Of a stretch of 64,000 nt of DNA, positions 38,669-63,464 are shown piece by piece. Location: NCBI GenBank assembly GCA_049366715.1, contig JBMNCQ010000059.1:113607-177606 (forward strand), given 5' to 3'. The stretch comes from Peptococcaceae bacterium (GTDB taxonomy: Bacteria; Bacillota; Peptococcia; Peptococcales; BICA1-8). Made by a program: the position numbers and the translations under genes. The notes under the pieces are model-generated. The model searched no databases, had not been told where the DNA came from, and was given only the letters and a program-made list of their open reading frames with translations. Within the stretch, counting starts at the first letter, position 1. Each line of letters starts with the position of its first letter.

Positions 38669-38724
38669 ACATGTATGATGTCTCATGTGTTTATTTTTTT
38701 CTTAACTTGTATGATGTCATTTGT
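38669..38724 (+). promoter_or_regulatory. Two direct copies of ACnTGTATGATGTC(T)CAT(T)TGT; candidate GntR/FadR-type operator overlapping the promoter of the first catabolic operon
   Basis: ACATGTATGATGTCTCATGT at 38669-38688 and ACTTGTATGATGTCATTTGT at 38705-38724. The second copy runs into TATAAG, a -10-like hexamer. Confidence 0.45.
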
Positions 38725-38764
38725 ATAAGATGTAACGTAATACAACAGGAAGGGGCTAGATAAA

Positions 38765-39499
38765 ATGACGGTTATTCATAAAGATTTATGCACCGGCTGC
38801 AAAATTTGTAACAAATATTGTACTGTTGATGCGATTCATTATTCTCCTGAGGAGAAGAAATGTTTTATTGACCAGTCCAGGTGTACGGAATGTTATGTAT
38901 GCTTAAGACAGAAGGTCTGTCCGAGGGGTGCGATTCAGCCTGTGGAGTTAGACGGCTTCTATAAACAATTTCAGCACGTAATCAGTGATCCTGTTGAAAG
39001 TCATGGGGTTACGGGAGTAAGCGGCCGGGGGACGGAAGAAGTAAAAACAAATGACGTATCAGGCAGAACCCGCAAAGGTGAAGTAGGGATTTGTATTGAT
39101 ATGGGACGTCCCGGTCTGGGTGTATATTTAAGGGATGCAGAAAAGGTTGCCATGGCAATTGCTGCTGCCGGGGCAGAACTGGCACCCGCTGAACATACTC
39201 CGTTAGCGGCTTTGATGCCGGATTTAAAAACCGGCAGATTAGAGGAAGCCTGCTTGGATTATCATCTCTTGTCGGTCATTGTAGAGGCAAAGTGTCAGGA
39301 GATGCAGCTTAGGGAAGTGTTGCAGGCCCTGCAAAAAATTGCAAAAGAAATCGATACGGTATTTTCTTTGGGATTAATCGTACGCACTGATGAAAAAGGA
39401 AAGACTAAGGTCCTGGATTGTTTGGATGAATTAGGAATACCACGGCCGTATCGCGGCAAAGTCAATGTCGGCTTAGGAAAACCATTATCTTTAGCTTAG
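38765..39499 (+). CDS. Module 1, subunit A: N-terminal 2x[4Fe-4S] ferredoxin domain fused to an unrecognised ~180-aa domain
   Basis: CTGCKICNKYC and CTECYVCLRQKVCP, then the conserved SDPVESHGVTGVSGRGTEEVKTNDVSGR...GEVGICIDMGRPGLG...EIDTVFSLGLI...KVNVGLGKP. Confidence 0.8.
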   Translation: MTVIHKDLCTGCKICNKYCTVDAIHYSPEEKKCFIDQSRCTECYVCLRQKVCPRGAIQPVELDGFYKQFQHVISDPVESHGVTGVSGRGTEEVKTNDVSGRTRKGEVGICIDMGRPGLGVYLRDAEKVAMAIAAAGAELAPAEHTPLAALMPDLKTGRLEEACLDYHLLSVIVEAKCQEMQLREVLQALQKIAKEIDTVFSLGLIVRTDEKGKTKVLDCLDELGIPRPYRGKVNVGLGKPLSLA

Positions 39500-39515
39500 A
39501 AGGGAGGAAAATGAA

Positions 39516-40163
39516 GTGACGCATTCTTTACATCGTTCAGGTTCTCTGGAATCACAGAAAAAAGATTTCAACTGGTTCATGTATCAGACGCAAGGAGTTA
39601 ATGATACAAACATTAAAGAAAAGGCTTTAGAATTTATTGCCGTAGCGGAAGCATTAGGCTCAGAAAACTGGGGAGATGTTAAGACAGGGCCTAAAACCCA
39701 GTACCCTGTAGAATATATCAAGGAAAATATCACGAATAAATCCCGGATCAGGGGAGTATTTACCCGTAAAGAACAGGTAGTAGAATTTCTAAAACAAATT
39801 AAAGCCAAGGATTTAGACCAATCAGTGGTCATTACCGGGGTTTTGTCTGAAGTACTGCCGGCTTGTCAAGAGGCGGAAGTTAAACCCCATTCGATAAATT
39901 ACTCATTAGGCGTATGGGGGAAGAAAGATAACCTGCCTGATGAAACAACCCTCTCTATAACGACCATGTGCGGGCATCATATGATTCCGCCTAAATATGT
40001 TGAATATATGATTGAACAAGTTAACAAGGGACGTCTTACCGCAGATGAAGCAGCAATAAAGTTAGCTAATTTCTGCTATTGCGGTATTTTCAATCAGGTA
40101 AGATGTGCCGAAATTATTCATGAAACGGTTGCCGCCGCAGGCGAAGCTGCCGCTCTGGAATAA
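39516..40163 (+). CDS. Module 1, subunit B: 'MTHSLHR' protein with conserved MCGH and CxCG motifs, unrecognised family
   Basis: GTG start 16 nt after the subunit A stop, behind GAAGGGAGGAA. MTHSLHRSG...KPHSINYSLGVWG...TTMCGHHMIPP...KGRLTADEAAIKLANFCYCGIFN. Confidence 0.8.
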   Translation: MTHSLHRSGSLESQKKDFNWFMYQTQGVNDTNIKEKALEFIAVAEALGSENWGDVKTGPKTQYPVEYIKENITNKSRIRGVFTRKEQVVEFLKQIKAKDLDQSVVITGVLSEVLPACQEAEVKPHSINYSLGVWGKKDNLPDETTLSITTMCGHHMIPPKYVEYMIEQVNKGRLTADEAAIKLANFCYCGIFNQVRCAEIIHETVAAAGEAAALE

Positions 40164-40186: not shown

Positions 40187-40236
40187 GGGAGGATAAATAA
40201 ATTTCTCAGCAACCCCTTTATTTGATTTATCCTCCC
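40187..40236 (+). other. Long imperfect hairpin between module 1 and the Ldh_2 gene
   Basis: GGGAGGATAAATAAAT ... ATTTGATTTATCCTCCC, about 15 bp of pairing with a ~17-nt loop and no clear T-run. Confidence 0.5.
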
Positions 40237-40266
40237 ATCCTAATTTTTATACATGGTGGGATTATT

Positions 40267-41331
40267 TTGACGAATAAATTTAGGTTTCACTACAAGGAAC
40301 TATTTGATTTTTCTGAAAACATCCTGGTTAATTCCGGAGTCCCTGAAAAACATGCGGAGATCGTTGTTAAAGTCTTGATCCAAGCTGATCTTGAGGGGAT
40401 ATCATCCCATGGACTGACCAGGCTGCCTGTTTATCTGGAGAGAATAGAAAAGGGTTTAATCAATACAAATCCCCGGATCGCTTTGGACTTTCCTTTCCCG
40501 GCCTTAGGAGTGCTGGATGCCGATAACAGCTTAGGCCATGTAGCGGCACATACCGCTATGGAGGAATTGATCATTAAAGCCAAGGAGTATGGTATCGCCG
40601 GAATTGGGATTAGGAACAGTAATCATTTCGGTGCCGCTTCATATTACGCCAATATGGCTATGCAACATAACTTGGTGGGAATTGTTCTATCTAACGGACC
40701 TCCGGCAATACCTCCCTGGGGTTCATATGAGCCGTATTTGGGAACAAATCCTATCGCCGTCTCTATTCCCGGCGGAGATGAATATGGTCCCCTGGTCATT
40801 GACTTAGCGACAAGTATTGTTGCCAGGGGGCGGATTATCAAGGCAGCTTTAGAGGGACTGCCTCTTGAACCCGGCTGGGCCTTAGATTCAAAGGGCAAAC
40901 CTACAACAAATGCCGGTGCGGCTTTACAGGGATGTATTTTGCCAATGGCACAGCATAAAGGTGCTGCCTTGGCAATGGCAGTAGAGATATTAGCCGGTTT
41001 GCTGACCGGTGCAGGCTATGGAAAAGATGTCATCTGGCAAATGAGCGACCTGCCATTGCCTGGTAACGTCGGTCATCTCCTGATTTCTTTCAATCCGGAG
41101 GGATTTTTGAATATTCCGGTTATTAAGGCTAAGATGGATTCTATGATGAAAGAGATGAAAAGTTTACCCAAAGCTTATGGCTTTACGGAAATTAGAATTC
41201 CCGGAGAAAAAGGACGAAAAATGGCAGAAAGCAATAAACAAAAGGGAATTATTTTGAGCAGGGAATTGGTAGAAAAGTTTGCACACCTTGCTGTTAAACT
41301 ATCGGTTCCCCTGCCAAAATCAATGATTTAA
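40267..41331 (+). CDS. Ldh_2 family (malate/L-lactate/sulfolactate-type) 2-hydroxyacid or imino-acid dehydrogenase
   Basis: Start moved to TTG 40267. ADLEGISSHGLTRLPVYLERI, NSNHFGAASYY, GTNPIAVSIP, and ATSIVARGRI are typical Ldh_2 motifs. Confidence 0.8.
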   Translation: MTNKFRFHYKELFDFSENILVNSGVPEKHAEIVVKVLIQADLEGISSHGLTRLPVYLERIEKGLINTNPRIALDFPFPALGVLDADNSLGHVAAHTAMEELIIKAKEYGIAGIGIRNSNHFGAASYYANMAMQHNLVGIVLSNGPPAIPPWGSYEPYLGTNPIAVSIPGGDEYGPLVIDLATSIVARGRIIKAALEGLPLEPGWALDSKGKPTTNAGAALQGCILPMAQHKGAALAMAVEILAGLLTGAGYGKDVIWQMSDLPLPGNVGHLLISFNPEGFLNIPVIKAKMDSMMKEMKSLPKAYGFTEIRIPGEKGRKMAESNKQKGIILSRELVEKFAHLAVKLSVPLPKSMI

Positions 41332-41350: not shown

Positions 41351-42079
41351 ATGAGAGTAGATCAAGAAAAATGTATGGGCTGCGGGATATGTGTGCCGTA
41401 CTGTCCTGCTAATGCGATTACGATCCGGAACAAAAAGGCGCAGATTGATGAAGAGGCTTGTTTTGAATGTGGCAATTGCCTGAGGACGAGAGTTGTAAGA
41501 TGTCCTCAAGGTGCTTTTTACGAACAGCCCGGCCTTTATGAGAGTACCAGAGCAGCCAGAAGGTTTTTTAGCGACCCGATGACTACTCATTCTGTTACCA
41601 AGATTCCCGGCCGGGGTACGGAAGAGGTAAAAACAAATGATGTTACCGGACGGGTTGTGCGGGGGGAAATCGGTATTGCAATTGAGATGGGACGACCTTG
41701 TTTGGGAACCGATATGAATCAGGTCGAAAAAGTCACAATTGCCCTGGGGGAATTGGGTTTGGAATTTGAAGAAATGAATCCTTTAACTCATCTGATGGAA
41801 GACCGTAATAAAGGTACCATCAAGCCGGAATACAAAGATGAGAAAATGGTTTCCTGTATTATTGAGTTTACCGCACCGAAATCCCTGCTGGTTCCGGTGA
41901 TGAATGTTTTGAAAAAGGTTGCTGCTGAAATCAATACCGTTTTCTCTCTGGATTTAATATACCGCTTTAATGAGGACGGTTCATTACCAATTCTGCCTGA
42001 ATTAGAAAAACTGGGTGTCAGAGTACGCAAAAATTCTAAGGTTAACCTGGGTATGGGTCGGCCGGTTATTACTGTATAG
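41351..42079 (+). CDS. Module 2, subunit A (divergent paralog)
   Basis: CMGCGICVPYCP and CFECGNCLRTRVVRCP, then SDPMTTHSVTKIPGRGTEEVKTNDVTGR...GEIGIAIEMGRPCLG...EINTVFSLDLI...KVNLGMGRP. Confidence 0.8.
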   Translation: MRVDQEKCMGCGICVPYCPANAITIRNKKAQIDEEACFECGNCLRTRVVRCPQGAFYEQPGLYESTRAARRFFSDPMTTHSVTKIPGRGTEEVKTNDVTGRVVRGEIGIAIEMGRPCLGTDMNQVEKVTIALGELGLEFEEMNPLTHLMEDRNKGTIKPEYKDEKMVSCIIEFTAPKSLLVPVMNVLKKVAAEINTVFSLDLIYRFNEDGSLPILPELEKLGVRVRKNSKVNLGMGRPVITV

Positions 42080-42092: not shown

Positions 42093-42740
42093 ATGACACA
42101 TTCATTGCACCGGAGAGGTACCGAAGAAAGTTTAAAGGATGATTATGTCTTATTGGTCACATCAGCTTATGGTTTTAATCATGAAGGATCAAAAGAAAAA
42201 ATGCGTAAAATACTTGATGAAGTTTTTGCTATGGAGCCTTGTAATATTGGCTCCTATGATACGGGTACCATCCTGGGGGGGGTTGATATTCAGGAAATCC
42301 GGGATGCGTTAAATGATGTGCCCCGGGTTAGGTGTGCTTTTTCTTCTAAGGAACAAATGAAAGCCGTATTAAAAAGAATAAAAGAGCTCGATCTCGGTTT
42401 ATCCGTTACGGTCAGCGGTTTAACAGATGAAGTATTAGATATTGCCCGGGAATTAGAAATTAAACCTCATTGTGTTAATCTCTCCTTAGAAGTTTGGGGT
42501 AATGTAGAAAAACTTCCTTCTGAAGAAATATTGGAACTTGTTACGATGTGCGGTCATGGCCTTATTTCTTCCGGTTTGGCCGCAGATTGCCTAGCAAAAG
42601 TAAAAAAAGGCCGGATGACTGCCAGAGAGGCTGCTGTTAAGATATCTCACCCCTGTGTGTGCGGTATCTATAACCCAGATAGAGCAGAAAAATTACTGGA
42701 AAAATACGTACCCTCAAAAGAAGGCCGGGAAATGGCTTAG
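42093..42740 (+). CDS. Module 2, subunit B (divergent paralog)
   Basis: Start moved to ATG 42093, 13 nt after the subunit A stop and behind AGGAGG. MTHSLHRRG...KPHCVNLSLEVWG...VTMCGHGLIS...KGRMTAREAAVKISHPCVCGIYN. Confidence 0.8.
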   Translation: MTHSLHRRGTEESLKDDYVLLVTSAYGFNHEGSKEKMRKILDEVFAMEPCNIGSYDTGTILGGVDIQEIRDALNDVPRVRCAFSSKEQMKAVLKRIKELDLGLSVTVSGLTDEVLDIARELEIKPHCVNLSLEVWGNVEKLPSEEILELVTMCGHGLISSGLAADCLAKVKKGRMTAREAAVKISHPCVCGIYNPDRAEKLLEKYVPSKEGREMA

Positions 42741-42813: not shown

Positions 42814-43824
42814 ATGAAAATTAAGAAAATACTAGCATTATTATTGGCAGTAATGTTAGTCGCGTCTGTGGCTGCCGGATGCACCTCAGGTTCCGAGAAA
42901 GAGGAAGCCAAGCAAGGCGGGGAGAAGCCCGCATATCCGGAAAGACCTATTGAATTAGTTGTTCCTTTCAGTGCCGGGGGCGGCAGTGATATCTTTGCCA
43001 GATCAATGGTCAAAATTATTAATGACAACAAATGGGTGAGCCAGCCTCTCAATGTCGTAAACAAGCCCGGCGGCAGCGGGTCTATCGGTTATGCCTATGT
43101 TGCTGAAAAGAAAGCTGATCCATATTACAGTGCTACGGTAAGTTCCAGCTTCTATACAGCCCCCCTATTAGGAAATTCCCCGGTTTCTTATAAAGATTTT
43201 CAGCCTGTTGCCGGTTTAGCTATGGATACCCTGGCACTTTTTGTGCGGACCGAGTCCGATATCCAGAGTGTTAAGGATGTTGTGGAGAGATCTGAAGCAA
43301 ACCCCAAGAGTCTTTCCATGGGCGGAACAAGCGGAACTTCTGATGATGCCGTAATGCACCGCGTATTGCAGGATGAAGCAGGTATCGAAATTAAATATGT
43401 TCCTTTTGAAAGCGGCGGCCAGGCTATGACGGCCCTCCTCGGCGGACACGTAGATTTAGTATGGGCCAACCCCGGAGAGGCTTTAAACCAGGTTGAAGCA
43501 GGCAAAGCCCGCGCAATAGTCGTGGCCAGTGAAGAAAGAATTCCGGGCTTTGAAGATGTACCTACTTTAATGGAAGAAGGTATTGATGCCAAACTTGCCC
43601 AGTTCCGCGGATTTATTTTACCGAAGGATGCCCCGCCAGAAGCCGTAGAATACTGGGAAGACGTTCTTAAGAAGCTTCATGAGAGTGAGGCCTGGCAGGA
43701 AGACTATATTAAGAAAAACTCAATTACTCCCCGTTTCTTAGGTCAGGAAGAATTTGCTGAAGCCATCGTTGAACTTAGTGACATGTATGCCGAGATCTTC
43801 GAAAAAATCGGAGCAACTAAGTAA
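42814..43824 (+). CDS. tctC: Tripartite tricarboxylate transporter substrate-binding lipoprotein
   Basis: Lipobox VAAGC; Bug/TctC signature PIELVVPFSAGGGSDIFARSM. Confidence 0.9.
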   Translation: MKIKKILALLLAVMLVASVAAGCTSGSEKEEAKQGGEKPAYPERPIELVVPFSAGGGSDIFARSMVKIINDNKWVSQPLNVVNKPGGSGSIGYAYVAEKKADPYYSATVSSSFYTAPLLGNSPVSYKDFQPVAGLAMDTLALFVRTESDIQSVKDVVERSEANPKSLSMGGTSGTSDDAVMHRVLQDEAGIEIKYVPFESGGQAMTALLGGHVDLVWANPGEALNQVEAGKARAIVVASEERIPGFEDVPTLMEEGIDAKLAQFRGFILPKDAPPEAVEYWEDVLKKLHESEAWQEDYIKKNSITPRFLGQEEFAEAIVELSDMYAEIFEKIGATK

Positions 43825-43878
43825 TAAAATGAGGGAGAGCATGCTCTCCCTCATTATGAAAAGAAGGGGGGTTCTATT

Positions 43879-44334
43879 ATGAAAAAGGCTGACCAAATTA
43901 CGGGTAGTATCCTCTTAGCCCTTTCTGTCTATATCATGAAATCGGCGGCTTCCCTTGTGTTATGGAATGAAGGCGCGCCAGGGCCGGGATTTGTTCCTTT
44001 CTGGGTGGGAATATTTTTAGCAATTTGCTCAGTGGTCTTAATTATGACTACTTTAGGTAAAAAATATCAGCAGCAGGACCGGATATTTTCTAAAGAAGGC
44101 TTTCAGTATCTGACAGTAGTATGCGGTTCGGCTATTGTTGCCGGTTTAATCGTAAATGTGGTAGGGATGGTATTGGCAATGGGCTTAATGGCCGGAGTAT
44201 TAGTGACGGTTTTATCGGAAGAAAGAAAAATAATTACTTCCCTGGGCACGGTCGTTGTGCTTCCGATGGTATTCTATCTTATCTTTAAAATAGCTTTAGA
44301 CGTTCCGTTGCCAATGGGAATCTTTGGTTTTTAG
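43879..44334 (+). CDS. tctB: Tripartite tricarboxylate transporter small membrane subunit
   Basis: 151 aa with 4 TM helices, located between tctC and tctA. Confidence 0.8.
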   Translation: MKKADQITGSILLALSVYIMKSAASLVLWNEGAPGPGFVPFWVGIFLAICSVVLIMTTLGKKYQQQDRIFSKEGFQYLTVVCGSAIVAGLIVNVVGMVLAMGLMAGVLVTVLSEERKIITSLGTVVVLPMVFYLIFKIALDVPLPMGIFGF

Positions 44335-44351
44335 AAAGGTAGGGGATACAG

Positions 44352-45866
44352 ATGCTTGAAACATTTTCCAATTTATTATACGGCTTTTCAGTGGCGATAA
44401 CTCCTATCAATATTTTGTATTGCTTGGTGGGGGTAATATCCGGAACTGTTATCGGTGCCCTGCCCGGCTTAGGTCCGTCAGCAGGATTGGCGGTACTTTT
44501 ACCCCTTACCTTCGGGGCTGATCCTGTGTCAGGCATAATCATGCTGGCAGGTATCTACTACGGTGCCATGTATGGCGGTGCGATTACTTCCATCCTGATT
44601 AATACGCCCGGTGACTCGGCTGCGGTTATGACGACCTTGGACGGTTATCCCTTAACGATAAAGGGCAAGGCAGGTCCGGCTATGGGCATGGCTGCTTTCA
44701 GTTCCTTTATCGGCGGGACATTCGGTATAATTGTTTTTACCTTTTTGGCCCCGGCGCTGGCTAAATTTGCCCTTTCCTTCGGACCTCCGGAATATTTTGC
44801 TTTAATGGTATTGGGCTTGACAACTCTGGCCGGAATGACGGGGAGCAATCCTACCAAAGGTTTTATCAGTGCCCTCATAGGCTTAATGCTGGCTGTCGTT
44901 GGTTTGGACCTGGTGACAGGATTGCCCAGGTATACCTTTGGCAGAATGGAGTTATTCAGCGGGATCGATTTTATTCCGGTAGCTATGGGTGTCTTTGGTA
45001 TCGGAGAAATACTGGTTACTGCCGAAGAAAAATTTGATATAGATGCCCTTAAAAAGGCTGATTTAAGCTTTAAAAGATTATTTCCATCCGCCCGGGACTG
45101 GGCGAGATCTAAATGGGTCATTATCAGGGGAACAGTTGCAGGATTCTTTATCGGAATGCTCCCCGGAGCAGGGGCGACAATCGCATCCTTTATCTCTTAC
45201 GGTATGGCTAAAAAATCATCTAAGCATCCGGAAGAATTCGGGCAAGGGGCCATCGAAGGTGTTGCCGCACCGGAATGTGCCAATAATGCTGCATCGGTAG
45301 GAGCTTTTGTACCTTTATTAACCCTCGGTGTACCGGGCTCCGCCAGCACAGCGATTTTAATGGGAGCTTTGATGATGTTTGGGTTACGCCCCGGCCCGCT
45401 GCTTTTTGAGAGAAATCCTGATTTTGTCTGGGGTCTTATCGGAAGTATGTATGTTGGCAATGTTATCCTAATATTAATGGTAATGGTTTTTGTACCCATT
45501 TTTGTCAGGGTATTACAGGTACCCAGGGCATCATTGAATGCTGTAGTCATGGCCTTTATTTTAATGGGTGCTTATAGTTTGAATAACAGTATGTTTGATG
45601 TCTATCTCACAATTGGTTTCGGTGTGCTGGGATATTTCATGAAAAAACTTAATTATCCTGGTGCGCCCCTGGTACTGGCTTTAGTATTAGGACAGCTTTT
45701 AGAGAATTCCCTCCGGCAATCTTTAATATTATCGGAAGGATCCGTAGGAATTTTCTTTGCCCGGCCGATTTCGGCGCTATTAATGATTGTCGCAATCGGA
45801 GCTGTATTTGTGCCAATTTTTAAAGGAATGATCAAGAAAATAAAATCGAACAGCATTTCTGCTTGA
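44352..45866 (+). CDS. tctA: Tripartite tricarboxylate transporter large permease
   Basis: 504 aa: GALPGLGPSAGLAVLLP, INTPGDSAAV, and GMLPGAGATIASF. Confidence 0.9.
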   Translation: MLETFSNLLYGFSVAITPINILYCLVGVISGTVIGALPGLGPSAGLAVLLPLTFGADPVSGIIMLAGIYYGAMYGGAITSILINTPGDSAAVMTTLDGYPLTIKGKAGPAMGMAAFSSFIGGTFGIIVFTFLAPALAKFALSFGPPEYFALMVLGLTTLAGMTGSNPTKGFISALIGLMLAVVGLDLVTGLPRYTFGRMELFSGIDFIPVAMGVFGIGEILVTAEEKFDIDALKKADLSFKRLFPSARDWARSKWVIIRGTVAGFFIGMLPGAGATIASFISYGMAKKSSKHPEEFGQGAIEGVAAPECANNAASVGAFVPLLTLGVPGSASTAILMGALMMFGLRPGPLLFERNPDFVWGLIGSMYVGNVILILMVMVFVPIFVRVLQVPRASLNAVVMAFILMGAYSLNNSMFDVYLTIGFGVLGYFMKKLNYPGAPLVLALVLGQLLENSLRQSLILSEGSVGIFFARPISALLMIVAIGAVFVPIFKGMIKKIKSNSISA

Positions 45867-45946
45867 CAATAATTTATTTAGCCATTAAATTCTGTATGAG
45901 GGTAAATTTATTAAAAAGCGATGTTTTTAATGGCTGGAGGGTAATT

Positions 45947-51710: not shown

Positions 51711-51744
51711 AGAGCAGGGTAGTGGCAAAGTTGGATTTTTGAGC

Positions 51745-51760: not shown

Positions 51761-51808
51761 ATTATTTTTAGTATGCTTTGCCCACTATGCAGATCGGGAG
51801 GTGATGAT

Positions 51809-55695: not shown

Positions 55696-57573
55696 ATGTA
55701 TCGTATGTTGAATCCGGGAAAGATTGGCAATATATCACTGAAAAACCGTGTGATTATACCGTCGATGTGCCTTTATTATTCCGATAATGAGGGCAATGTC
55801 ACCGATAAACTGGCTGCTTTTATTGAAACAAGGGCCCGGAACGGGGTGGGAGGTTTTATCGTACCGGCCAATCCCTATGGCAAAAATAAGCGTGCCCGCG
55901 GTTCCATCGTTGATGACTCCCGTATTGAGCAGTGGAAGCGTCTCACAGATATGGTTCACAGCTATGATGCCAGGATATTTTGTCAGCTGCATCCGTCAGG
56001 GTTTCAATTCGGCCGGAAAGAATTTACCGAGTCACCTCTGGACTGGACTACTGAAGAAGTTGCCATGATCATAGAGGCCTATGCCCAGGGAGCGCTGCGG
56101 GCTAAGAAAGCAGGTTTCGACGGAGTTGAAATTCACGGTGCCCACGGTCATGAAGTTGCTTTATTTTTATCTACTTTAATCAATAAGCGGACAGATAAAT
56201 ATGGACAGGGAATTGAAGGACACACGGCGATCATAACGGAGATGATTCAGAAGATAAAAGAATATGCCGGGCAGGATTTTCCGGTAATACTCCGGATCAG
56301 CGGTGAAGAAAGATTACCCGGCGGCAGAGAAATTGCTGAAACTCTGGAGATTTGTCTCCTGGCTGAGAAGGCAGGGGCAGATGCCATTCACGTTTCCGTA
56401 GGTATGCCGGAGAGTGAACAATGGGAATGCCCTTCCAGTGAAATTGAGCAAGGACATTTAGCCTGGATGGGCGAAAAATTAAAAGCTAAACTGGCGATAC
56501 CGGTAATTATTGTCGGCCGTATTGTCAACTGGCAAGTTGCCGAGGATATTATTCGTTCCGGGAAAGCCGATTTTATTGCTATTGCCCGGGCGTTCCTGGC
56601 CGAACCTAATTGGATGTCTTCCGTTGGCAAGGAGGATTTAAGTGATATCCGCCGGTGTATTGCCTGTAACCAGGGATGCCGCACAACAAGAGCCTTGAAG
56701 AAAACCATCACCCACTGCCTGCAGAATCCTTTGACAGGTCATGAAGAAGAGATTATCATCGAACCGGATCCGGATAAGAAGAAAATTTGTGTAATCGGAG
56801 CAGGCGTCAGTGGATTGGAAGCTGCTCATGTAATGTCTTTAAGAGGTCATGATGTTACAATCTATGAAAAAGAAAACTTTATCGGTGGTAATTTCCGTTG
56901 GGCCAGCATGCCTCCCGGGAAAAAAGCTTATCTTAATTTGCTTGATTTTTATGAAACAACATTAACCAAACGGGGAGTCGGCATAATTTTAAATCAGGAG
57001 ATCGCAGAAATCCCGGCTCAAAAATATGATATTGTTATTGTCGCCGTAGGGGCTAAAGAAATCATACCGCCTATTGATTATGGGGATGCAGTTGTTTATA
57101 CGGCTGTCGATTTACTTTCTAACGGAAAGCCGGAGGTTGATCAGTATGTGGTTATCGGTGACGGATTGGTAGGTTATGAGGCTGCTGATTATCTTTTAGC
57201 CCAGGGCAAGAAGGTTGTACTGGTAGGGGATACCAGAGAGGAAGCCAGTGAAAAGCTGGGGATAGCCAGATGGCATTTTATGTCGGAAAGATTTAAAGAA
57301 AATACCGAAAATCTGACGATAATCAAATATTCTACAGTCGTATCCGTTAATTCTCAATCGTTTAGAATCAAAGATCAGGATGGAGAGATCAGGGAAATTA
57401 AAGGCGCTTACACCTTTATCCTGGCCTGTGGTTTTAAAGGTAATCTGGAATTATACGAAGAGTTAAAAAGTAAAACAGCGAATGTTTATTTAGTGGGCAC
57501 TGCTAAAAATTGCGGTGATGCGATGGATGCCATCCACGATGCATTTAATACTGCTTTAAATATTAAAATTTAA
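55696..57573 (+). CDS. Enoate-reductase / 2,4-dienoyl-CoA-reductase-type flavoprotein (OYE TIM barrel, [4Fe-4S], FAD/NAD(P) domain)
   Basis: GFDGVEIHGAHGHEV, the Fe-S motif RRCIACNQGC, and the Rossmann motif KICVIGAGVSGLEAA. Confidence 0.85.
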   Translation: MYRMLNPGKIGNISLKNRVIIPSMCLYYSDNEGNVTDKLAAFIETRARNGVGGFIVPANPYGKNKRARGSIVDDSRIEQWKRLTDMVHSYDARIFCQLHPSGFQFGRKEFTESPLDWTTEEVAMIIEAYAQGALRAKKAGFDGVEIHGAHGHEVALFLSTLINKRTDKYGQGIEGHTAIITEMIQKIKEYAGQDFPVILRISGEERLPGGREIAETLEICLLAEKAGADAIHVSVGMPESEQWECPSSEIEQGHLAWMGEKLKAKLAIPVIIVGRIVNWQVAEDIIRSGKADFIAIARAFLAEPNWMSSVGKEDLSDIRRCIACNQGCRTTRALKKTITHCLQNPLTGHEEEIIIEPDPDKKKICVIGAGVSGLEAAHVMSLRGHDVTIYEKENFIGGNFRWASMPPGKKAYLNLLDFYETTLTKRGVGIILNQEIAEIPAQKYDIVIVAVGAKEIIPPIDYGDAVVYTAVDLLSNGKPEVDQYVVIGDGLVGYEAADYLLAQGKKVVLVGDTREEASEKLGIARWHFMSERFKENTENLTIIKYSTVVSVNSQSFRIKDQDGEIREIKGAYTFILACGFKGNLELYEELKSKTANVYLVGTAKNCGDAMDAIHDAFNTALNIKI

Positions 57574-57593: not shown

Positions 57594-58829
57594 ATGGGGA
57601 TGACAGTGACAGAAAAAATACTGGCTAAAGCAAGTAAAAAAGCTGTTGTGTTTCCGGGGGAGATCGTTAAGGCCAAAGTTGATAAGGCTATGATCCATGA
57701 TAATAACGCTCCGTTGGTGATGAAACATTTCAGTAAGATCGTTGTTGATCAAGTATGGGATCCGGAAAGAATTGTTTTTGTAGTCGACCATCATAGTCCC
57801 TGCACATCGATTAAAGCTGCCCAGCATCAGGCTGAAATGCGGGAGTTTGCCCGGAAGCAGGGTGTGAAAAAGTTCTTTGACTGCGGAGAGGGTATCTGTC
57901 ATGTACTGATGCTGGAAAAAGGGCTGGCAGGTCCGGGTCAGGTAATCGTAGGAACAGATTCCCATACGACGGGGGAAGGAGCACTGGGCAGCTTTGCAAC
58001 GGGGATTGGTGCTACGGAAATGGCCGGTGTTTTGGCAACAGGCGAGATTTGGCTGAGAGTTCCGGAAACCATTAAGGTTGAAATCAACGGGGATATACCT
58101 TCCGGCAGTGATGCCCGGGATGTGATTTCCCTGGTTTTGCAAAAGATAGGTGCTTCCGGTGCTAATTATTTAGCCGTTGAATTTACCGGGACAACTGTTG
58201 AAAAAATGGATTTGAGTGAGAAAACTACCTTATGTGTCATGAGTATGGAGATGGGAGCTAAAAATGCGGTTATTGTACCTGCGGAAGGCAAGAATACCGG
58301 AGATCATCTGGAAAGTGACCCTGATGCCGGATATTATGCCCATTTAGTCTTTGATGTTGCAGATTTAGAACCGCTGGTGGCCTGTCCCAGCTTACCGACA
58401 AATATCAGAAAAGTAGAAGAAGTGGAAAAAGACAGAATCTTTATTAATCAAGCTGCCGTTTCCTCCTGCGCAGGGGCTCAGCTCAGGGATTTAAAAGCTG
58501 CGGCAGAAATTCTCAAGAACAAAAAAATTGCGGAGAATGTCAGGTTACTTGTTATTCCGGCCAGCAGGGAAATATATAATCAGGCGATGCATGAAGGTTA
58601 TCTTAACATTCTTCACGATGCCGGAGCCATCATCAGTTCTCCTGCCTGTGGAGCCTGCGGGGCTCATGATATCGGAGCCCTGGCACCGGGAGAAGTTTGT
58701 ATTAGTTCTACGACCCGGAACATGCCGGGGAGAATGGGGCCGGGCGGGGAAATATACCTGGCCAGTGCAGCAACTGTAGCAGCGTCTGCCTTGAAAGGAT
58801 ATATTTGTGATCCCAGAAAAGTCGTTTAG
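57594..58829 (+). CDS. Aconitase-family hydro-lyase large subunit (LeuC/HacA-like)
   Basis: MTVTEKILAKAS, MIHDNNAPL, GTDSHT, and the Cys ligand contexts SSCAGA and PACGACGA. Confidence 0.85.
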   Translation: MGMTVTEKILAKASKKAVVFPGEIVKAKVDKAMIHDNNAPLVMKHFSKIVVDQVWDPERIVFVVDHHSPCTSIKAAQHQAEMREFARKQGVKKFFDCGEGICHVLMLEKGLAGPGQVIVGTDSHTTGEGALGSFATGIGATEMAGVLATGEIWLRVPETIKVEINGDIPSGSDARDVISLVLQKIGASGANYLAVEFTGTTVEKMDLSEKTTLCVMSMEMGAKNAVIVPAEGKNTGDHLESDPDAGYYAHLVFDVADLEPLVACPSLPTNIRKVEEVEKDRIFINQAAVSSCAGAQLRDLKAAAEILKNKKIAENVRLLVIPASREIYNQAMHEGYLNILHDAGAIISSPACGACGAHDIGALAPGEVCISSTTRNMPGRMGPGGEIYLASAATVAASALKGYICDPRKVV

Positions 58830-58852
58830 TCATTCTAAAAAGAGGTGAAGAA

Positions 58853-59353
58853 ATGTCTGCAAAATGCTGGAAGTTTGGTCATGATATTTCAACTGATGAA
58901 ATTATTCCGGTCCGTTTCATGATCGTTACAGAACCTGCTGAATTGGCAAAGCATATCATGGAGAATTTGGACCCTGAATTTGTTCATAAATTCCAACCGG
59001 GAGAAATATTTATGGCCGGAGAAAATTTTGGTTATGGCTCCAGCCGGGAACATGCCGCATTAGCCTTAAAGGCTGCAGGAGTTCAGGCGATTATTGCCAG
59101 GTCCTTTGCCCGTATTTTTTACAGAAATTCGATAAATATCGGCCTGCCGGTTCTGGTTTGTCCTGAAGCCGTTGACAACAGTGCTGAAGGAGACATAATC
59201 GAAATTGATATCGACAGAAGTTTAATCAGAAATTTGAGCAGAAATATGGAATTTACTTTTCAATCTTATCCTTCTTTTATTATGGAATTCTTTAAACGAG
59301 GCGGTTTAATCAATGCCTTGAATGAAGAGTTAAGTGATAAACTAAATTTATGA
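58853..59353 (+). CDS. Aconitase-family hydro-lyase small subunit (LeuD/HacB-like)
   Basis: 166 aa: ISTDEIIP, GENFGYGSSREHAALALKAAGV, and ARIFYRNSINIGLP. Confidence 0.85.
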   Translation: MSAKCWKFGHDISTDEIIPVRFMIVTEPAELAKHIMENLDPEFVHKFQPGEIFMAGENFGYGSSREHAALALKAAGVQAIIARSFARIFYRNSINIGLPVLVCPEAVDNSAEGDIIEIDIDRSLIRNLSRNMEFTFQSYPSFIMEFFKRGGLINALNEELSDKLNL

Positions 59354-59372: not shown

Positions 59373-60389
59373 ATGTTAAGAGGTAGGAGGAAAGCTTTAA
59401 TCTGGTTATGTGGTCTTATTGCTATCACGTTAGTTCTTTTCGGATGTTCAGGACAAGACGCCAAACAAGAAGCAAAGGATGAGCCTCAACAAGGACAAGC
59501 AGAGAATAGTGAGGCCAGCTGGCCGACTAAGGAAATCGAGGTTGTCTATCACTCTAAAGCCGGTTCCGGGGGAGATATTTTTCTCAGGGCTATGGGGAAA
59601 GCTGCCGAGCCCATGTTAGGACAGCCTTGGGTTGTCAACAACCTTACCGGTGCTTCCGGGGCTAATGCCTGGGATTATGTAGCTAAGGCAGCTCCGGACG
59701 GGTATACCATTTTAGGGATGTCCTCAACGATTGTTACTTCTCCATTGCAGAATAAGATGCCGATTTCCTATCAGGACTTTGACCCTGTAGCTATGATGTT
59801 TATTGATCCCATTGTAATTTTTGTACCTGCTGATTCTCCTTATCAGACCCTAGGTGAAATGATTGAGGCTGCCAGGCAAGAACCGGGCAAACTAAAATGG
59901 GCCGGAGGTACTGCCGGAAATATTGAGTTTGTCGGCGCGAGAGAATTGATGAAAGTAGCTGATTTTAAAGCATCATTAGTTCCCTTTGAAGGAGGCGGCG
60001 ATGCCGTAGTTTCGGTATTAGGCGGACATCTTGATGCCGGTATCGGAGAATATGCTGAAATGAAGGCCAGTGTTGAAGCCGGTAAAATTAGAATCCTCGC
60101 CACTTTCAACCTGCTTCCTGATAATCCTGATATTCAAACTGTGGAAGAAGCAGGTTACCCGGAAGTGAAACTGGAAAAATTCCGCGGAATATTTGTTCCG
60201 AAAGGAACTCCTGCGGAGATTATTGATCGATTAGTGGAAGTAATGAAAGATGTTTATCATGACCCGGACTTTAAAAGGTATTACGAGGAAGGAAACTTAA
60301 TTCCGGCCTTCGCTGCTAAAGAAGAATTCACGAAAGTAATTGAAAATCAATATAAACAGGTTGAGGAATCCCTGAAAAATATTAACTAA
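59373..60389 (+). CDS. tctC: Second TTT substrate-binding lipoprotein
   Basis: Lipobox LFGC; EIEVVYHSKAGSGGDIFLRAMG; a TctC-like fold signature. Confidence 0.85.
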   Translation: MLRGRRKALIWLCGLIAITLVLFGCSGQDAKQEAKDEPQQGQAENSEASWPTKEIEVVYHSKAGSGGDIFLRAMGKAAEPMLGQPWVVNNLTGASGANAWDYVAKAAPDGYTILGMSSTIVTSPLQNKMPISYQDFDPVAMMFIDPIVIFVPADSPYQTLGEMIEAARQEPGKLKWAGGTAGNIEFVGARELMKVADFKASLVPFEGGGDAVVSVLGGHLDAGIGEYAEMKASVEAGKIRILATFNLLPDNPDIQTVEEAGYPEVKLEKFRGIFVPKGTPAEIIDRLVEVMKDVYHDPDFKRYYEEGNLIPAFAAKEEFTKVIENQYKQVEESLKNIN

Positions 60390-60455
60390 TCTTTCTGAGG
60401 GGCGGGTTAAATCCCGCCCTATCATATAAGGATAATCAACAATGGAGGTGAGCTT

Positions 60456-60920
60456 ATGTTTCAGCGCAATGATTGGATTACCGGAATAATCTCCCTGTTC
60501 ATCGGCGTATTTACATTAATCAGGGCTGCTACATGGAATGCACAATCTCTTGATCCCTCGGGGCCGGGAGCAATTCCGATAATTTTGGCCTGGGGCATAA
60601 TTGTAATTGGAATCATTCACCTGATCGGTTCCTGGTCTGCCGTGAAAAAAGGCGAAAGTAAAGAGACCTTTAACTGGGGTGAATATAAAATTATAGCACA
60701 AATTACAGTTATGTGTATTATTTATATTCTTTTATTAAGAAGCATAGGATACTTGATTTTAACGCCTTTATTAATTATGGGCATCATGAAAAGTGTTAAC
60801 GAACCGAATACCTGGAAATCTTTTAAAGTAGGGGTGCTTTCCACCGTAGTTTTGTTCGTGGTATTTTTCTATGGCCTGCATGTCAAATTACCACTAGGAT
60901 TCTTTAACAATATATTCTAA
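60456..60920 (+). CDS. tctB: Second TTT small membrane subunit
   Basis: 154 aa with 4 TM helices, between tctC and tctA. Confidence 0.75.
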   Translation: MFQRNDWITGIISLFIGVFTLIRAATWNAQSLDPSGPGAIPIILAWGIIVIGIIHLIGSWSAVKKGESKETFNWGEYKIIAQITVMCIIYILLLRSIGYLILTPLLIMGIMKSVNEPNTWKSFKVGVLSTVVLFVVFFYGLHVKLPLGFFNNIF

Positions 60921-60953
60921 TACCGTATTTTACTTGAAAGGAGGAAATATATT

Positions 60954-62444
60954 TTGATTGAGCACATTTCATTAGGCCTGGACATGGTACTGCAGTGGCA
61001 ATCTCTGCTGGCAATATTATTTGGCGTAACCTGGGGAATCTTTGGCGGGATGATTCCCGGTATCAACTCTACCATTGCTATGGCCCTGATTTTACCCTTT
61101 ACCTGGGGAATGGATCCTGTAGTGGCAATGATGATGCTGGCCGGGGTTTATGCAGGCGGGGAATACGGCGGGTCTATCCCGGCTATTCTTATCGGAACAC
61201 CAGGTACAAATGCTGCAGCCTGTACGGTTTTAGACGGTTATGAGCTGCATAAACAGGGGAGAACGGGGTTAGCGTTATATACTTCTCTTATCTCTTCATC
61301 TTTTGGAGGATTGATCGGAGCTGCTGTTTTAATTTTGGTCGCCGTACCACTGGCCGGAGTTGCTTTGGCTTTCGGACCGGCAGAGTATTTTAGTCTGGCT
61401 ACGGTGGGTCTTACCCTTGTCTGTTCACTGGGAGAGAAAAATGTCTTAAAAGGCATTTTAGCCGGGATGCTGGGTGTTTTGTTATCGACAGTAGGCTTTG
61501 ACCCTTTTTCGGCAGTACCCAGATTTACCTTTGGCATACTTTCCTTAAATGAAGGGTTTAAGATGATTCCTTTAATGATGGGTTTATTTGCTGTATCAGA
61601 AATGTTTAAACAGTCCCAGAGATTAACAAGTGACAGTGATTTTGTTTTAAGCACCAAAACCGATACCAGTTTTCCGTCCTGGAAAGAAATTAAAAATTTT
61701 CTGCCTTTCTCATCTTTGGCTGCGCTGGCCGGGGTCGTGATCGGGGCTATGCCGGGAGCAGGTGCAACGGCGGCGGCTTTTATTACTTACAGTGAAGCGA
61801 AAAGATGGAGTAAAAATTCTGATTCTTTTGGGCAAGGGAATCCTATCGGCGTTGCCGTACCGGAAGCAGCCAATAATGCAGTAACCGGCGGAGCTATGGT
61901 CCCCCTGTTAGCTTTGGGAATTCCCGGCTCAAATTCTACAGCCATTATGCTGGGCGCTCTGATGATTCATAATGTAACACCGGGCCCCCTGCTTTTTACC
62001 AAAAGTCCGGAGATTCCTTACGGTATTTTTGTCGCTTTGTTCATTGCGAATATTTGTATGTTTATTGCCGGATATTTCTTTATTAAATTTGCCATCAAAG
62101 CGACCAGTATTTCCAAATCGGCTTTAATAGCAGTTGTGATCACCCTTGTATTTACAGGGTCTTATGCTTACAGCGGTGAGATTTTCGATATAGGTGTTGC
62201 CCTTTGTTTTGGTCTTCTAGGTATTTTGATGCGTCATTTTAAAGTTCCCCATACGGCTACTGTGCTGGGATTCGTCCTGGGGTTCATTATGGAAGCCAAT
62301 TTAAGGCGGGCTTTAATTGTATCTGACGGGAGTTATTCCGGTGTGATTTTTAACTCGGGTATCAGTTCTGTTTTATTTATCATAGCGGTAGCATCCGTAG
62401 TTGTGTCCTTAATCAGAGGATTTCGAACGCAAGTAGCTAAGTAG
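60954..62444 (+). CDS. tctA: Second TTT large permease
   Basis: TTG start; GMIPGINSTIAMALILP, IGTPGTNAAA, and GAMPGAGATAAAF. Confidence 0.9.
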   Translation: MIEHISLGLDMVLQWQSLLAILFGVTWGIFGGMIPGINSTIAMALILPFTWGMDPVVAMMMLAGVYAGGEYGGSIPAILIGTPGTNAAACTVLDGYELHKQGRTGLALYTSLISSSFGGLIGAAVLILVAVPLAGVALAFGPAEYFSLATVGLTLVCSLGEKNVLKGILAGMLGVLLSTVGFDPFSAVPRFTFGILSLNEGFKMIPLMMGLFAVSEMFKQSQRLTSDSDFVLSTKTDTSFPSWKEIKNFLPFSSLAALAGVVIGAMPGAGATAAAFITYSEAKRWSKNSDSFGQGNPIGVAVPEAANNAVTGGAMVPLLALGIPGSNSTAIMLGALMIHNVTPGPLLFTKSPEIPYGIFVALFIANICMFIAGYFFIKFAIKATSISKSALIAVVITLVFTGSYAYSGEIFDIGVALCFGLLGILMRHFKVPHTATVLGFVLGFIMEANLRRALIVSDGSYSGVIFNSGISSVLFIIAVASVVVSLIRGFRTQVAK

Positions 62445-62486
62445 CAAAGCATTCCTTACGGATTTTATTTACAAAGGAGGAATAGT

Positions 62487-63464
62487 ATGAAAATTTTGAA
62501 TATGGCCCGTGGTGCTAATATGCTCATTAATCAGGTTTTGGAAGTAAAAAAAGGTGAGACCGTGCTTATTGTTACCGACACCGACCGGCCCCGGATCATC
62601 ACGGAGGCTCTGGCTTACAGTGCAGAATCCGCCGGTGCCGTAGTCACGGTGATTATTATGAAGCCCCAGAGCATCGGCGGGGAAGAACCCCCGAGCCCCG
62701 TTGCCGCAGCCATGGCGAATTCCCAGATTGTGATTAATCAGGCTACTTTCAGCCTTACTCATACCGATGCAGCACGGCAGGCCAGGAAAAATGGTGCCAG
62801 AATAGCAAATCTGCGGAATTTTACCGAAGATATGATGGTTAACGGCGGGATTAATGCCGACTATGACCAAGTGGGGAGAATTAGTGAGCAGTTAGCTCAA
62901 TTATTGACCAAAGCGGATGAAATCAGGCTGACAACCCCCGAGGGGACCGATCTGATCATGAAATCTGCGGGGAGAGAGGCTATTGCTCAGACGGGTATGG
63001 TGAAAGAAAGCGGGCAAATTTCGGGACTGCCTGACGGTGAATCTACCTTGGCACCTTTAGAGGGAACTACTGAAGGAGTGATCGTTGCTCCTTATATCGC
63101 CGATATTCTGGGGGAAATCACCGAGCCGTTCCGGATGCAGGTCACAAAGGGCCGGATTGTGGAGATTCAAGGGGGATTGCAGGCTTTAAAGCTGCGAGAG
63201 CTGTTAAAAAAACATGATGACAACGGTTATAATGCTGCTTCCCAGTTTGCCCTGGGTACGAATCCGGCTTGCCGGGTCATTCCCAACACCCGGGAAGTTT
63301 CCAAAAAACTTGGTACAGCCCATATTGCAATCGGCGATAATCGAAGTTTAGGAGGAAATAGTCCCAGTTCTTTTCATATCGATTTTGTATTTCTGAAACC
63401 CAGTGTTTATTTAGACGGGCGTTGTATTATAGAAAACGGGGAATGTCTCCTTGATTTTGCATAA
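62487..63464 (+). CDS. M29 aminopeptidase-T / NicX-like metalloenzyme, paralog 2
   Basis: LEVKKGETVLIVTD, GLPDGESTLAPLEG, FALGTN, KKLGTAHIAIGD, and SSFHID. Confidence 0.7.
   Translation: MKILNMARGANMLINQVLEVKKGETVLIVTDTDRPRIITEALAYSAESAGAVVTVIIMKPQSIGGEEPPSPVAAAMANSQIVINQATFSLTHTDAARQARKNGARIANLRNFTEDMMVNGGINADYDQVGRISEQLAQLLTKADEIRLTTPEGTDLIMKSAGREAIAQTGMVKESGQISGLPDGESTLAPLEGTTEGVIVAPYIADILGEITEPFRMQVTKGRIVEIQGGLQALKLRELLKKHDDNGYNAASQFALGTNPACRVIPNTREVSKKLGTAHIAIGDNRSLGGNSPSSFHIDFVFLKPSVYLDGRCIIENGECLLDFA

Follow-up and report, generated by a model that had tools for sequence, protein, structure and literature searches.

What does a 25-kb cluster of carboxylate importers, enzymes and iron-sulfur proteins do for an anaerobic bacterium, and does it encode a single pathway? 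The cluster occupies positions 38,669 to 63,464 of the 64,000-nucleotide stretch of Peptococcaceae DNA analysed here (contig JBMNCQ010000059.1; "the window" denotes this whole 64-kb stretch), and it carries three copies of a gene pair, hereafter A+B, in which A codes for a ferredoxin-domain protein and B for a cysteine- and histidine-rich partner. We found that the cluster comprises two regulons built from conserved gene blocks, and that A+B pairs are linked to tripartite tricarboxylate transporter (TTT) importers and to electron-transfer proteins. On balance, it is probably a catabolic supercluster of composite make-up, carried in the metagenome-assembled genome (MAG) of a strictly anaerobic spore former of the Bacillota, with two regulons that import and ferment oxidised di- and tricarboxylic acids and in which A+B acts as a ferredoxin-linked oxidoreductase; the imported acids are most likely hydroxylated or branched. 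The transporters, the regulators and most of the enzymes are ordinary members of large families in a familiar type of catabolic cluster. What is not ordinary is A+B, for which we found no literature and, beyond the ferredoxin domain of A, no family or fold match, together with its threefold presence and the circumstance that no described pathway fits either half.

Every gene named in the preliminary description was recovered in our open reading frame (ORF) listing and in Pfam and NCBIfam scans, but its gene list lacked two regulators, a GntR/FCD protein and a sigma-54 activator (bacterial enhancer-binding protein, bEBP). The left unit reads entirely on the plus strand, in the order A1-B1, Ldh_2, A2-B2, TctC-TctB-TctA (TctCBA), GntR, FAH and aldolase:

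38671..38725, plus strand: two direct TGTATGATGTC boxes within the left operon's promoter region, a candidate GntR operator judged from the sequence
38765..39499, plus strand: A1, 244 amino acids (aa), a 2x[4Fe-4S] ferredoxin domain (Pfam Fer4, residues 1-60) and an alpha/beta domain without family
39516..40163, plus strand: B1, Cys/His-rich partner of 215 aa that starts MTHSLHR; no Pfam, NCBIfam or PDB match
40222..41331, plus strand: Ldh_2-family NAD(P)H 2-oxo/imino-acid dehydrogenase (Pfam Ldh_2, 7e-115)
41351..42079, plus strand: A2, divergent paralogue of A1 (42% identity)
42093..42740, plus strand: B2, divergent paralogue of B1 (37% identity), start placed at the Met of MTHSLHR
42814..45866, plus strand: TctC-TctB-TctA importer 1 (Pfam PF03401, PF07331, PF01970)
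45863..46666, plus strand: GntR/FCD regulator, NanR/LldR/PdhR-like (Pfam GntR and FCD; NCBIfam)
46682..47557, plus strand: FAH-family enzyme, an HpaG/HpcE-like decarboxylase, isomerase or hydrolase
47745..48635, plus strand: DHDPS-family class I aldolase, closest to HOGA1

In the right unit, the genes for a DASS carrier and a PrpD-like protein diverge from those for a beta-decarboxylating dehydrogenase (IsoDH) and A3-B3, which are followed by M29, an old yellow enzyme (OYE)-type flavoenzyme, LeuCD-like subunits, TctCBA and a second M29:

48677..50116, minus strand: DASS-family di/tricarboxylate carrier
50217..51548, minus strand: MmgE/PrpD-family protein of the iminodisuccinate (IDS) epimerase / IRG1 branch (Pfam; PDB matches)
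51594-51609, minus strand: predicted sigma-54 promoter before the PrpD-like and DASS genes, exact TGGCAY-N5-TTGCW
inside 51594..51760, between the divergent promoters: ATTTTAGGAGA repeats, two direct and one inverted, read from the sequence
51745-51760, plus strand: predicted sigma-54 promoter before IsoDH-A3-B3, exact TGGCAY-N5-TTGCW
51773..52891, plus strand: beta-decarboxylating dehydrogenase (IsoDH), Iso_dh family, with an unusual specificity loop
53059..54441, plus strand: A3 (53059-53793) and B3 (53809-54441), close paralogues of A1 and B1 (86% and 88% identity)
54630..54645, plus strand: predicted sigma-54 promoter before the genes from M29a to M29b, exact TGGCAY-N5-TTGCW
54696..55661, plus strand: M29-family metalloprotein a, hydrolase-like (Pfam Peptidase_M29)
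55696..57573, plus strand: OYE + [4Fe-4S] + FAD/NAD(P) flavoenzyme of the 2-enoate reductase / BaiCD / FadH class
57594..59353, plus strand: aconitase-family hydro-lyase, large and small subunits (HacA and LeuD-DmdB subfamilies)
59373..62444, plus strand: TctC-TctB-TctA importer 2
62487..63464, plus strand: M29-family metalloprotein b
63566..64000, plus strand: N-terminus of a PAS + sigma-54 activator (bEBP) that runs past the window (whole gene C59:177172-179271, 699 aa)

Both importer sets score above cut-off for PF03401, PF07331 and PF01970 and are thus complete TTT systems. The left half begins 3' of a terminator-like hairpin and has a promoter of the ordinary type; a general promoter and terminator scan gave counts at or near chance level and was not used. 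For the right half, the 64-kb window contains exactly three perfect matches to TGGCAY-N5-TTGCW, all of them intergenic and correctly oriented, against a chance expectation that we estimate at ~0.1 for both strands. The gene at its 3' end codes for PAS, Sigma54_activat (3e-65) and AAA lid domains by Pfam. Thus, with three promoters of this type and a bEBP gene at its 3' end, the right half is a sigma-54 regulon, as judged from predicted -24/-12 elements and the activator. Repeat motifs shared among these promoters lie 5' of them; TTAGG(A) repeats precede the third (54630..54645), and the TTAGGAGA repeats may be the target of the bEBP. The separate control of the two halves (GntR/sigma-70 versus sigma-54), together with the separate occurrence of their blocks elsewhere (see below), argues against the earlier view of one island encoding one pathway.

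A second, paralogous sigma-54 island lies outside the window, at C84:31379-57202 of the host genome. It starts with an activator, TctABC, LeuCD, IsoDH (76% identity), LeuCD, a PrpD-like gene (61%) and DASS (65%), continues with two further aconitase-family sets, an enolase-superfamily gene, a LarA-like racemase and a GD_AH dehydratase, and ends with BhcD-like and BhcC-like genes followed by B and A (85%) close to the contig end. The N-terminus of its activator is 33% identical to that of the one at 63566, which suggests a related but different inducer.

Protein A joins a 2x[4Fe-4S] ferredoxin domain to ~180 residues without family. Among 24 diverse A sequences, all eight cysteines and a loop reading SDP..H.VT..GRGTEEVKTNDV.GR are invariant. 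Protein B invariably carries T2, H3, H6, R7, H125, C152, G153, H154, C187 and C189 (C187-x-C189-G), N193 and R196, with C117 nearly so. No Pfam, NCBIfam or PDB sequence match was obtained for B, and outside its ferredoxin domain A had no Pfam, NCBIfam, PDB sequence or fold match. The AlphaFold model of B (mean predicted local distance difference test score, pLDDT, 91) has no PDB fold match (best Foldseek E value 0.06, template modelling [TM] score ~0.25); that of A matches PDB entries solely via the ferredoxin domain, and its invariant loop is modelled at low confidence, which we take as a hint that the loop may pack against B. A profile search with B over 1.84 billion representatives retrieved, apart from a handful of fusions, members of this family alone, which form 855 clusters at 50% identity, and gave no link to any named family. 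Source annotations read "hypothetical", or name A after its ferredoxin domain. Likewise, our literature searches on anaerobic dipicolinate genes, TTT importers with Fe-S proteins, Opalinus Clay MAG proteomics and hydroxycitrate breakdown returned no paper on the A+B module.

The two genes travel together. The host genome holds 8 copies of each, always adjacent, and the A-to-B intergenic gaps measure 13-16 nucleotides. We observed A+B at 429 places among GTDB species-representative genomes, in carriers belonging to Bacillota, Thermodesulfobacteriota, Synergistota, Chloroflexota, Spirochaetota, Bipolaricaulota and Bathyarchaeia, with 70-90% sequence conservation between phyla; among 31 related genomes it is present in 6, all of at least 2.6 Mb. 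Three fusions were detected: P0391 joins A and B in one 440-aa chain, P0276 (411 aa) joins B to a Fer4_11 polyferredoxin domain, and P0322 (397 aa) joins B to ~190 residues without Pfam match. Adjacency and fusion show that A and B are obligate partners. The surrounding families are expanded in the host as well, which carries ~20 TctA and TctC homologues, 11 LeuCD-like pairs, 7 PrpD-like genes and 5 DASS carriers beside its 8 A+B pairs.

Neighbourhoods were compared at the 80 loci most similar to B1 (10 kb on each side of the B gene). TctA adjoins A+B at 56 of them, TctC at 52, GntR at 29, a LeuC-like gene at 21, a DHDPS-family gene at 15 (three phyla), a sigma-54 activator at 15 and an IsoDH orthologue at 12. 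The grouping proposed at the outset is therefore not fortuitous, the same families recurring beside A+B in several phyla. IsoDH orthologues 68-76% identical to ours adjoin A+B in 11 loci of three phyla, including Synergistaceae and Rectinemataceae MAGs. The gene immediately 3' of B1-type B genes codes for an NAD(P)H dehydrogenase from one of three unrelated families, namely NAD_binding_2 (11 cases), Ldh_2 (4 cases) or a BhcC-like/BhcD-like pair (4 cases). Other neighbours were GD_AH, MR_MLE, LarA, HpcH aldolase, 2-Hacid_dh, aminotransferases and glutamate dehydrogenase; 136 unlabelled neighbour proteins pooled for a Pfam tally were heterogeneous, with at most 6 members per family.

Five arrangements recur. 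Arrangement I, equivalent to our left half, reads (GlyK-184aa)-A-B-Ldh_2-A-B-TctCBA-GntR-(FAH)-aldolase and was found at 63-77% identity in loci L013, L019, L020, L021 and L025. In arrangement II (L014-L016, L022, L024 and host contig C84), a PrpD-like gene diverges from LeuCD-IsoDH-LeuCD-TctCBA-A-B-(BhcC-like)-(BhcD-like), with an activator. Arrangement III, equivalent to our right half, combines an activator with IsoDH-LeuCD-A-B-M29-TctCBA-M29 (L026, L047, L057, L060, L065). Arrangement IV, from Desulfobulbales, reads GntR-TctCBA-polyferredoxin-(492-aa protein with a carbon monoxide dehydrogenase [CODH]-like N-terminus)-(PadH-like NAD(P)H flavoprotein)-A-B-A-B-NAD_binding_2 dehydrogenase and then a DHDPS-family gene or MFS. 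The minimal arrangement V is GntR-TctCBA-A-B (L017, L018, L027, L028, L032, L078 and Aminivibrio). More specifically, what precedes A+B in L033-L059 (Desulfobulbales and related MAGs) is a 183-aa polyferredoxin resembling the PadI/YgfT N-terminus, the 492-aa protein, whose first 90 residues resemble the N-terminus of CODH or hybrid-cluster proteins, and a PadH-like flavoprotein of 420 aa; together, these three have the appearance of a module devoted to electron input.

Orthologous blocks at 60-78% identity are present in two further genomes of this family. In BRH_c20a, arrangement I is followed by M29a (75%)-TctCBA-M29b (74%)-activator (51%) and two AbrB-family genes; beyond these lie a gene of the galactarate-dehydratase type, genes for a LarA-type racemase and an enolase-superfamily protein, and aconitase-like genes, and then DASS, a PrpD-like gene and arrangement II. 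From these orders, the parts found in the window therefore represent a reshuffled version of a ~50-kb supercluster common to this bacterial family, the blocks of which stand alone in more distant genomes.

Some neighbours were set aside. The aconitase in the Desulfobulbales loci is an ordinary full-length enzyme on the opposite strand and probably a mere neighbour, and the neighbour families "c16" and "c23_442" look, on our reading, like antisense ORFs over B or A-B. Separately, in the cultured Aminivibrio pyruvatiphilus (L011/L012), the minimal GntR-TctCBA-A-B stands back to back with LeuCD-PdxA-like-TctCBA-IsoDH, and this operon also adjoins GntR-RidA-BhcC-like and an aspartate-semialdehyde dehydrogenase gene.

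What reactions might the recognisable enzymes catalyse? The reaction types first proposed hold at the level of families: hydration and dehydration of the aconitase and PrpD types, oxidation with beta-decarboxylation, cleavage by an aldolase and reduction of the enoate type. The proposed anaerobic setting agrees with the many Fe-S and ferredoxin proteins and with the distribution of the family among strict anaerobes. The Ldh_2 enzyme is closest to sulfolactate, malate and ureidoglycolate dehydrogenases, all below equivalog cut-offs. The aldolase had been called DapA-like; however, in PDB comparisons it matches human HOGA1 at 1.9e-76 (260 bits) and the best DapA at ~150 bits, and it scores 187.9 bits against the dapA equivalog TIGR00674, under the cut-off of 206.15. 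We thus rejected a DapA identity, and the closest assignment is a HOGA1-like, predicted 4-hydroxy-2-oxoglutarate aldolase. The nearest solved relatives of the PrpD-like protein are IDS epimerase (1e-51) and the IRG1/cis-aconitate decarboxylases (6e-43); it scores at most 53.5 bits against PrpD equivalogs with cut-offs of 458-950, so that only MmgE/PrpD superfamily domains are recognised and it is no PrpD 2-methylcitrate dehydratase.

IsoDH was assessed by equivalog score and by its substrate loop (Ser-x-Asn in isocitrate dehydrogenase [ICDH], Arg85 in homoisocitrate dehydrogenase [HICDH]). It has the overall Iso_dh fold with its metal and Arg motifs, is about equidistant from NAD-ICDH, homoisocitrate and isopropylmalate dehydrogenases with all equivalogs under cut-off, and has the loop KAINPHP where, in the alignment to both enzymes, ICDH has SSIN and HICDH its Arg; identities as isocitrate, isopropylmalate, homoisocitrate or tartrate dehydrogenase accordingly find no support in these comparisons. 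The aconitase-family pair is recognised by the hacA_fam and LeuD/DmdB subfamily models and falls below the LeuCD equivalogs (TIGR02083, 417 versus 610; TIGR02084, 203 versus 246). Its small-subunit loop reads RFMIVT; set against methanogen homoaconitases, this resembles the hydrophobic type, which would suggest an uncharged substituent.

The two M29 proteins, earlier labelled NicX-like, have NicX (PDB 7CN3) as their sole PDB match (3e-9 and 4e-7). They keep the HxD pair of what we take to be the Fe(II) triad of the Pseudomonas putida enzyme, His265/His318/Asp320, namely His318 and Asp320, but in the alignment to 7CN3 the position of His265 is Glu in M29a and Gln in M29b, and an extra His stands where NicX has Leu. 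With one iron ligand missing, NicX-type ring cleavage was rejected, and we read these proteins as putative metallohydrolases rather than dioxygenases. The OYE enzyme combines Pfam Oxidored_FMN and Pyr_redox_2 domains with a cluster motif CIACNQGC...C (CxxCxxxC...C) and fits the 2-enoate reductase / BaiCD / FadH layout, below the BaiCD and BilR equivalogs. The C=C reduction first attributed to it is thus borne out as a class assignment, but since OYE genes occur in only few homologous loci, this step appears accessory.

Taken together, we propose the following scheme. In the left half, the imported acid would be converted to a 4-hydroxy-2-oxo dicarboxylate, which the aldolase would split into pyruvate and glyoxylate or another aldehyde; Ldh_2 would act on a 2-oxo or imino intermediate, and the FAH enzyme on an intermediate of the oxaloacetate or acylpyruvate type. 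The right half would run a citrate-to-2-oxoglutarate-type sequence on a non-standard substrate: the PrpD-like protein would dehydrate or epimerise it, the aconitase-family pair would rehydrate it, and IsoDH would oxidise and beta-decarboxylate it to a 2-oxo acid. The two M29 proteins may trim or open the imported compound. A+B would be a heteromeric metalloenzyme in which the two [4Fe-4S] clusters of A link ferredoxin to a catalytic Cys3/His metal or cluster site in B. It would perform a redox step on the free imported acid, without CoA or ATP, and hand its product (a 2-oxo, imino or aldehyde acid) to the NAD(P)H-dependent dehydrogenase or reductase encoded next. In Desulfobulbales, the NAD(P)H flavoprotein and the polyferredoxin would replace free ferredoxin as its electron partner. 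The GD_AH- and enolase-type dehydratases, LarA-type racemase, HpcH aldolase and BhcC/BhcD-like proteins of the relatives tilt the substrate toward hydroxylated or branched polycarboxylates over heterocycles, and so do the glycerate kinase gene upstream and the OadA-like gene downstream.

Several points weigh against this scheme. No recognisable enzyme reaches a curated NCBIfam equivalog cut-off, and reactions are therefore assignable at family level only. The role of A+B is deduced from cysteine motifs, fusions and neighbours, and because its fold matches nothing, a non-redox role, for instance as a hydro-lyase, or a regulatory one is conceivable. The two halves may serve unrelated substrates, their proximity reflecting no more than common descent inside a single bacterial family; 6-17 kb separate them in two relatives, and more distant genomes carry them separately. 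In addition, the 80 neighbourhoods are a sample biased toward B1-like sequences, and their counts rest on crude ORF calls and BLAST clustering.

A bolder and doubtful version of the proposal is that A+B represents a new class of ferredoxin-wired metalloenzyme, which, with no activation by CoA or ATP, would act reductively on free polycarboxylic acids, by dearomatisation or reductive dehydroxylation. If true, the locus would offer the first genetic handle on an anaerobic pathway such as one that ferments dipicolinate, another heterocyclic polycarboxylate or a hydroxylated one.

Could a single pathway nonetheless span both halves? A hydroxycitrate- or oxalomalate-type acid would be isomerised by the PrpD-like and LeuCD-like enzymes, IsoDH would yield 4-hydroxy-2-oxoglutarate by oxidative decarboxylation, and the HOGA1-like aldolase would release pyruvate and glyoxylate, with A+B adjusting the redox state or the hydroxylation of the acid taken up. 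The location of the aldolase gene beside the PrpD/IsoDH/LeuCD set fits this route, as does an IsoDH loop unlike those of ICDH and HICDH at the compared positions. A precedent exists in ICDH, which forms 4-hydroxy-2-oxoglutarate from the Garcinia hydroxycitrate isomer; decarboxylation of oxalomalate yields the same product (both reviewed in PMC4945632). Both the paralogous block and the relatives contain glyoxylate-handling BhcC/BhcD-like genes, with glycerate kinase upstream here, and a LarA-type racemase and an IDS-epimerase-like PrpD protein would suit a substrate with several stereocentres. Yet the aldolase gene is part of the GntR operon, where a separate importer is encoded, and in L019 it stands without IsoDH or LeuCD; the hydrophobic RFMIVT loop, set against methanogen homoaconitases, suggests an uncharged substituent; and no evidence points to a supply of hydroxycitrate in the subsurface, where the relatives live. 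We consider this route unlikely.

Quite unlikely, too, is reductive breakdown of a pyridine-dicarboxylate such as spore dipicolinate, a form of the heterocycle idea of the preliminary description that we retain as an alternative, although the neighbours in relatives point more to hydroxylated polycarboxylates. Here, electrons from ferredoxin would drive ring reduction by tandem A'B' and AB pairs, and an imine reductase of the Ldh_2, OCD or NAD_binding_2 type would take the part of DapB. The DHDPS-family enzyme would catalyse the reverse of the DapA reaction, giving pyruvate and an aldehyde, and the M29 proteins would open a C-N bond. A-B-A-B tandems and low-potential electron partners are indeed frequent, the DHDPS-family gene follows at 15 loci in three phyla, the host and many carriers form spores, and an aspartate-semialdehyde dehydrogenase gene adjoins the Aminivibrio operon. 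Imine reductases are known from each of the three dehydrogenase families encoded after B (DpkA, mu-crystallin/BhcD, IREDs). However, the aldolase is much nearer to HOGA1 than to DapA, the M29 proteins lack the His265 of NicX, and IsoDH, LeuCD and PrpD, the best-conserved partners of B1-type pairs, would have no role. Nor do the neighbours include a molybdenum hydroxylase or amidohydrolase typical of anaerobic N-heterocycle pathways, and the search for literature on anaerobic dipicolinate genes found no paper.

It is very unlikely that A+B is non-enzymatic, that is, a redox-sensing PII/ACT-like regulatory pair gating the adjacent TTT importer as SbtB gates SbtA, with catabolism left to the recognisable enzymes. 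The weak top fold matches of the N-terminal half of B and of the C-terminal domain of A are PII-like proteins, SbtB among them, but these matches are not significant (E above 0.05, TM score ~0.25) and the beta-alpha-beta sandwich is very common. Adjacency to TctCBA would be expected of such a pair, but some A+B pairs have no transporter nearby (L073, L083, L086). Conservation of 70-90% between phyla is likewise as seen for PII proteins, whereas the NAD(P)H flavoprotein and polyferredoxin partners and the B-polyferredoxin fusion point to electron throughput, and tandem divergent pairs and 8 paralogues per genome are in keeping with an enzyme that has diversified in substrate. Finally, a chance run of housekeeping biosynthetic genes (leuCD, leuB, dapA, prpD) beside transporters is hardly credible and already contradicted by the present results: the family names are shared with leucine and lysine biosynthesis genes, but every such gene is under its equivalog cut-off, the 11 LeuCD-like pairs and 7 PrpD-like genes coexist with a separate leuBCD-like set on contig C52 so that none of the genes here is the housekeeping copy, and the blocks are conserved as neighbours of importers across phyla and have dedicated regulators.

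The preferred reading, two regulons for oxidised polycarboxylic acids served by a ferredoxin-linked A+B enzyme, can be set beside known systems. In the TctCBA operons of the Salmonella citrate system and of Betaproteobacteria (Bug/TctC-linked), as here, an importer stands beside enzymes and a regulator for the imported acid; the present cluster has two complete sets, and differs in its strictly anaerobic Bacillota host with ~20 TTT sets and in the uncharacterised Fe-S pair among the partners. The route from citrate through isocitrate to 2-oxoglutarate, the methylcitrate cycle and 2-oxoacid elongation use the same three superfamilies in the same order (dehydrate, rehydrate, oxidise and decarboxylate). 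Unlike in those routes, no enzyme here reaches an equivalog, the PrpD-like protein belongs to the IDS-epimerase/IRG1 branch, the IsoDH loop fits neither ICDH nor HICDH at the compared positions, and the cluster is catabolic and sigma-54-controlled. Human HOGA1 (PDB 3S5N/3S5O), the best solved relative of the aldolase, catalyses the last step of hydroxyproline breakdown; the predicted products would again be pyruvate and glyoxylate, but the present setting is bacterial and anaerobic, and the enzymes of the hydroxyproline pathway are absent.

Homologues of aldarate and beta-hydroxyaspartate enzymes (GarD/GudD, GarL/KdgD, GarR, GlxK; BhcC/BhcD) surround A+B in relatives and in the C84 island, and a glycerate kinase gene lies upstream here; in contrast to those routes, they are scattered over loci and below family cut-offs, and the routes themselves include no protein of the A+B type. 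NicX, the 2,5-dihydroxypyridine 5,6-dioxygenase of P. putida, is the only solved M29 relative, and beyond the replaced His265, the anaerobic host makes a dioxygenase reaction unlikely. The nicotinate fermentation cluster of Eubacterium barkeri, which encodes Hnr, enamidase, Hgd and DmdAB, is also anaerobic and unites a ferredoxin-dependent ring reductase with an NAD_binding_2 dehydrogenase and a LeuCD-like hydratase (DmdAB), but we saw no nicotinate dehydrogenase, enamidase, B12 mutase or lyase in the present cluster, and A+B looks unrelated to Hnr in size and domains.

To our knowledge, TTT importers are very numerous in anaerobes and almost none has a known substrate or pathway. The picture that emerges is of a small set of conserved blocks that many anaerobes of the subsurface, of sediments and of digesters combine in order to exploit oxidised organic acids, with a highly conserved, structurally unmatched Fe-S protein pair at their centre. 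Several carriers are in culture, among them Anaerosolibacter carboniphilus (DSM 103526), Aminivibrio pyruvatiphilus, Acetonema longum and Sporolituus thermophilus, and three paralogous A+B copies with binding proteins within 25 kb make this a convenient locus for ligand screening and enzymology. Were the A+B reaction identified, a ferredoxin-dependent step of a new type could join those of anaerobic carbon cycling.

The host genome is a MAG of 4.15 Mb (85% complete). Upstream of the cluster, the window holds housekeeping or sporulation genes (FolD, glycerate kinase, PrkA/YhbH/SpoVR) and the following features:

22889-27427: PrkA - DUF444 (YhbH) - SpoVR trio, a conserved sporulation/stress gene set
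35149-36510: ORF of 453 aa without Pfam or NCBIfam match, flanking glycerate kinase and tRNA-Pro
37846..37922, plus strand: tRNA-Pro(CGG) by ARAGORN, marking the left boundary
37936-38490: ORF of 184 aa without Pfam or NCBIfam match, flanking glycerate kinase and tRNA-Pro

The presence of the PrkA/YhbH/SpoVR sporulation genes therefore identifies the host as a spore-forming member of the Bacillota. A foreign origin of the cluster was considered and rejected: its GC content is unremarkable (43.9% versus 41.7% for the genome, the 85th percentile among 25-kb windows), and despite the tRNA-Pro gene at its left edge, the flank with glycerate kinase and the 184-aa ORF is syntenic in relatives. The 453-aa and 184-aa ORFs hold equivalent positions in the related genomes L013, L019 and L020, and a mechanical ORF call at 37852 overlaps tRNA-Pro. 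Beyond the window, after the activator, C59:179300-181929 (L095) codes for two half-size AbrB-family membrane proteins and for an OadA/PycB-like carboxyltransferase (HMGL-like + PYC_OADA); two small AbrB-family membrane genes trail the activator in BRH_c20a too.

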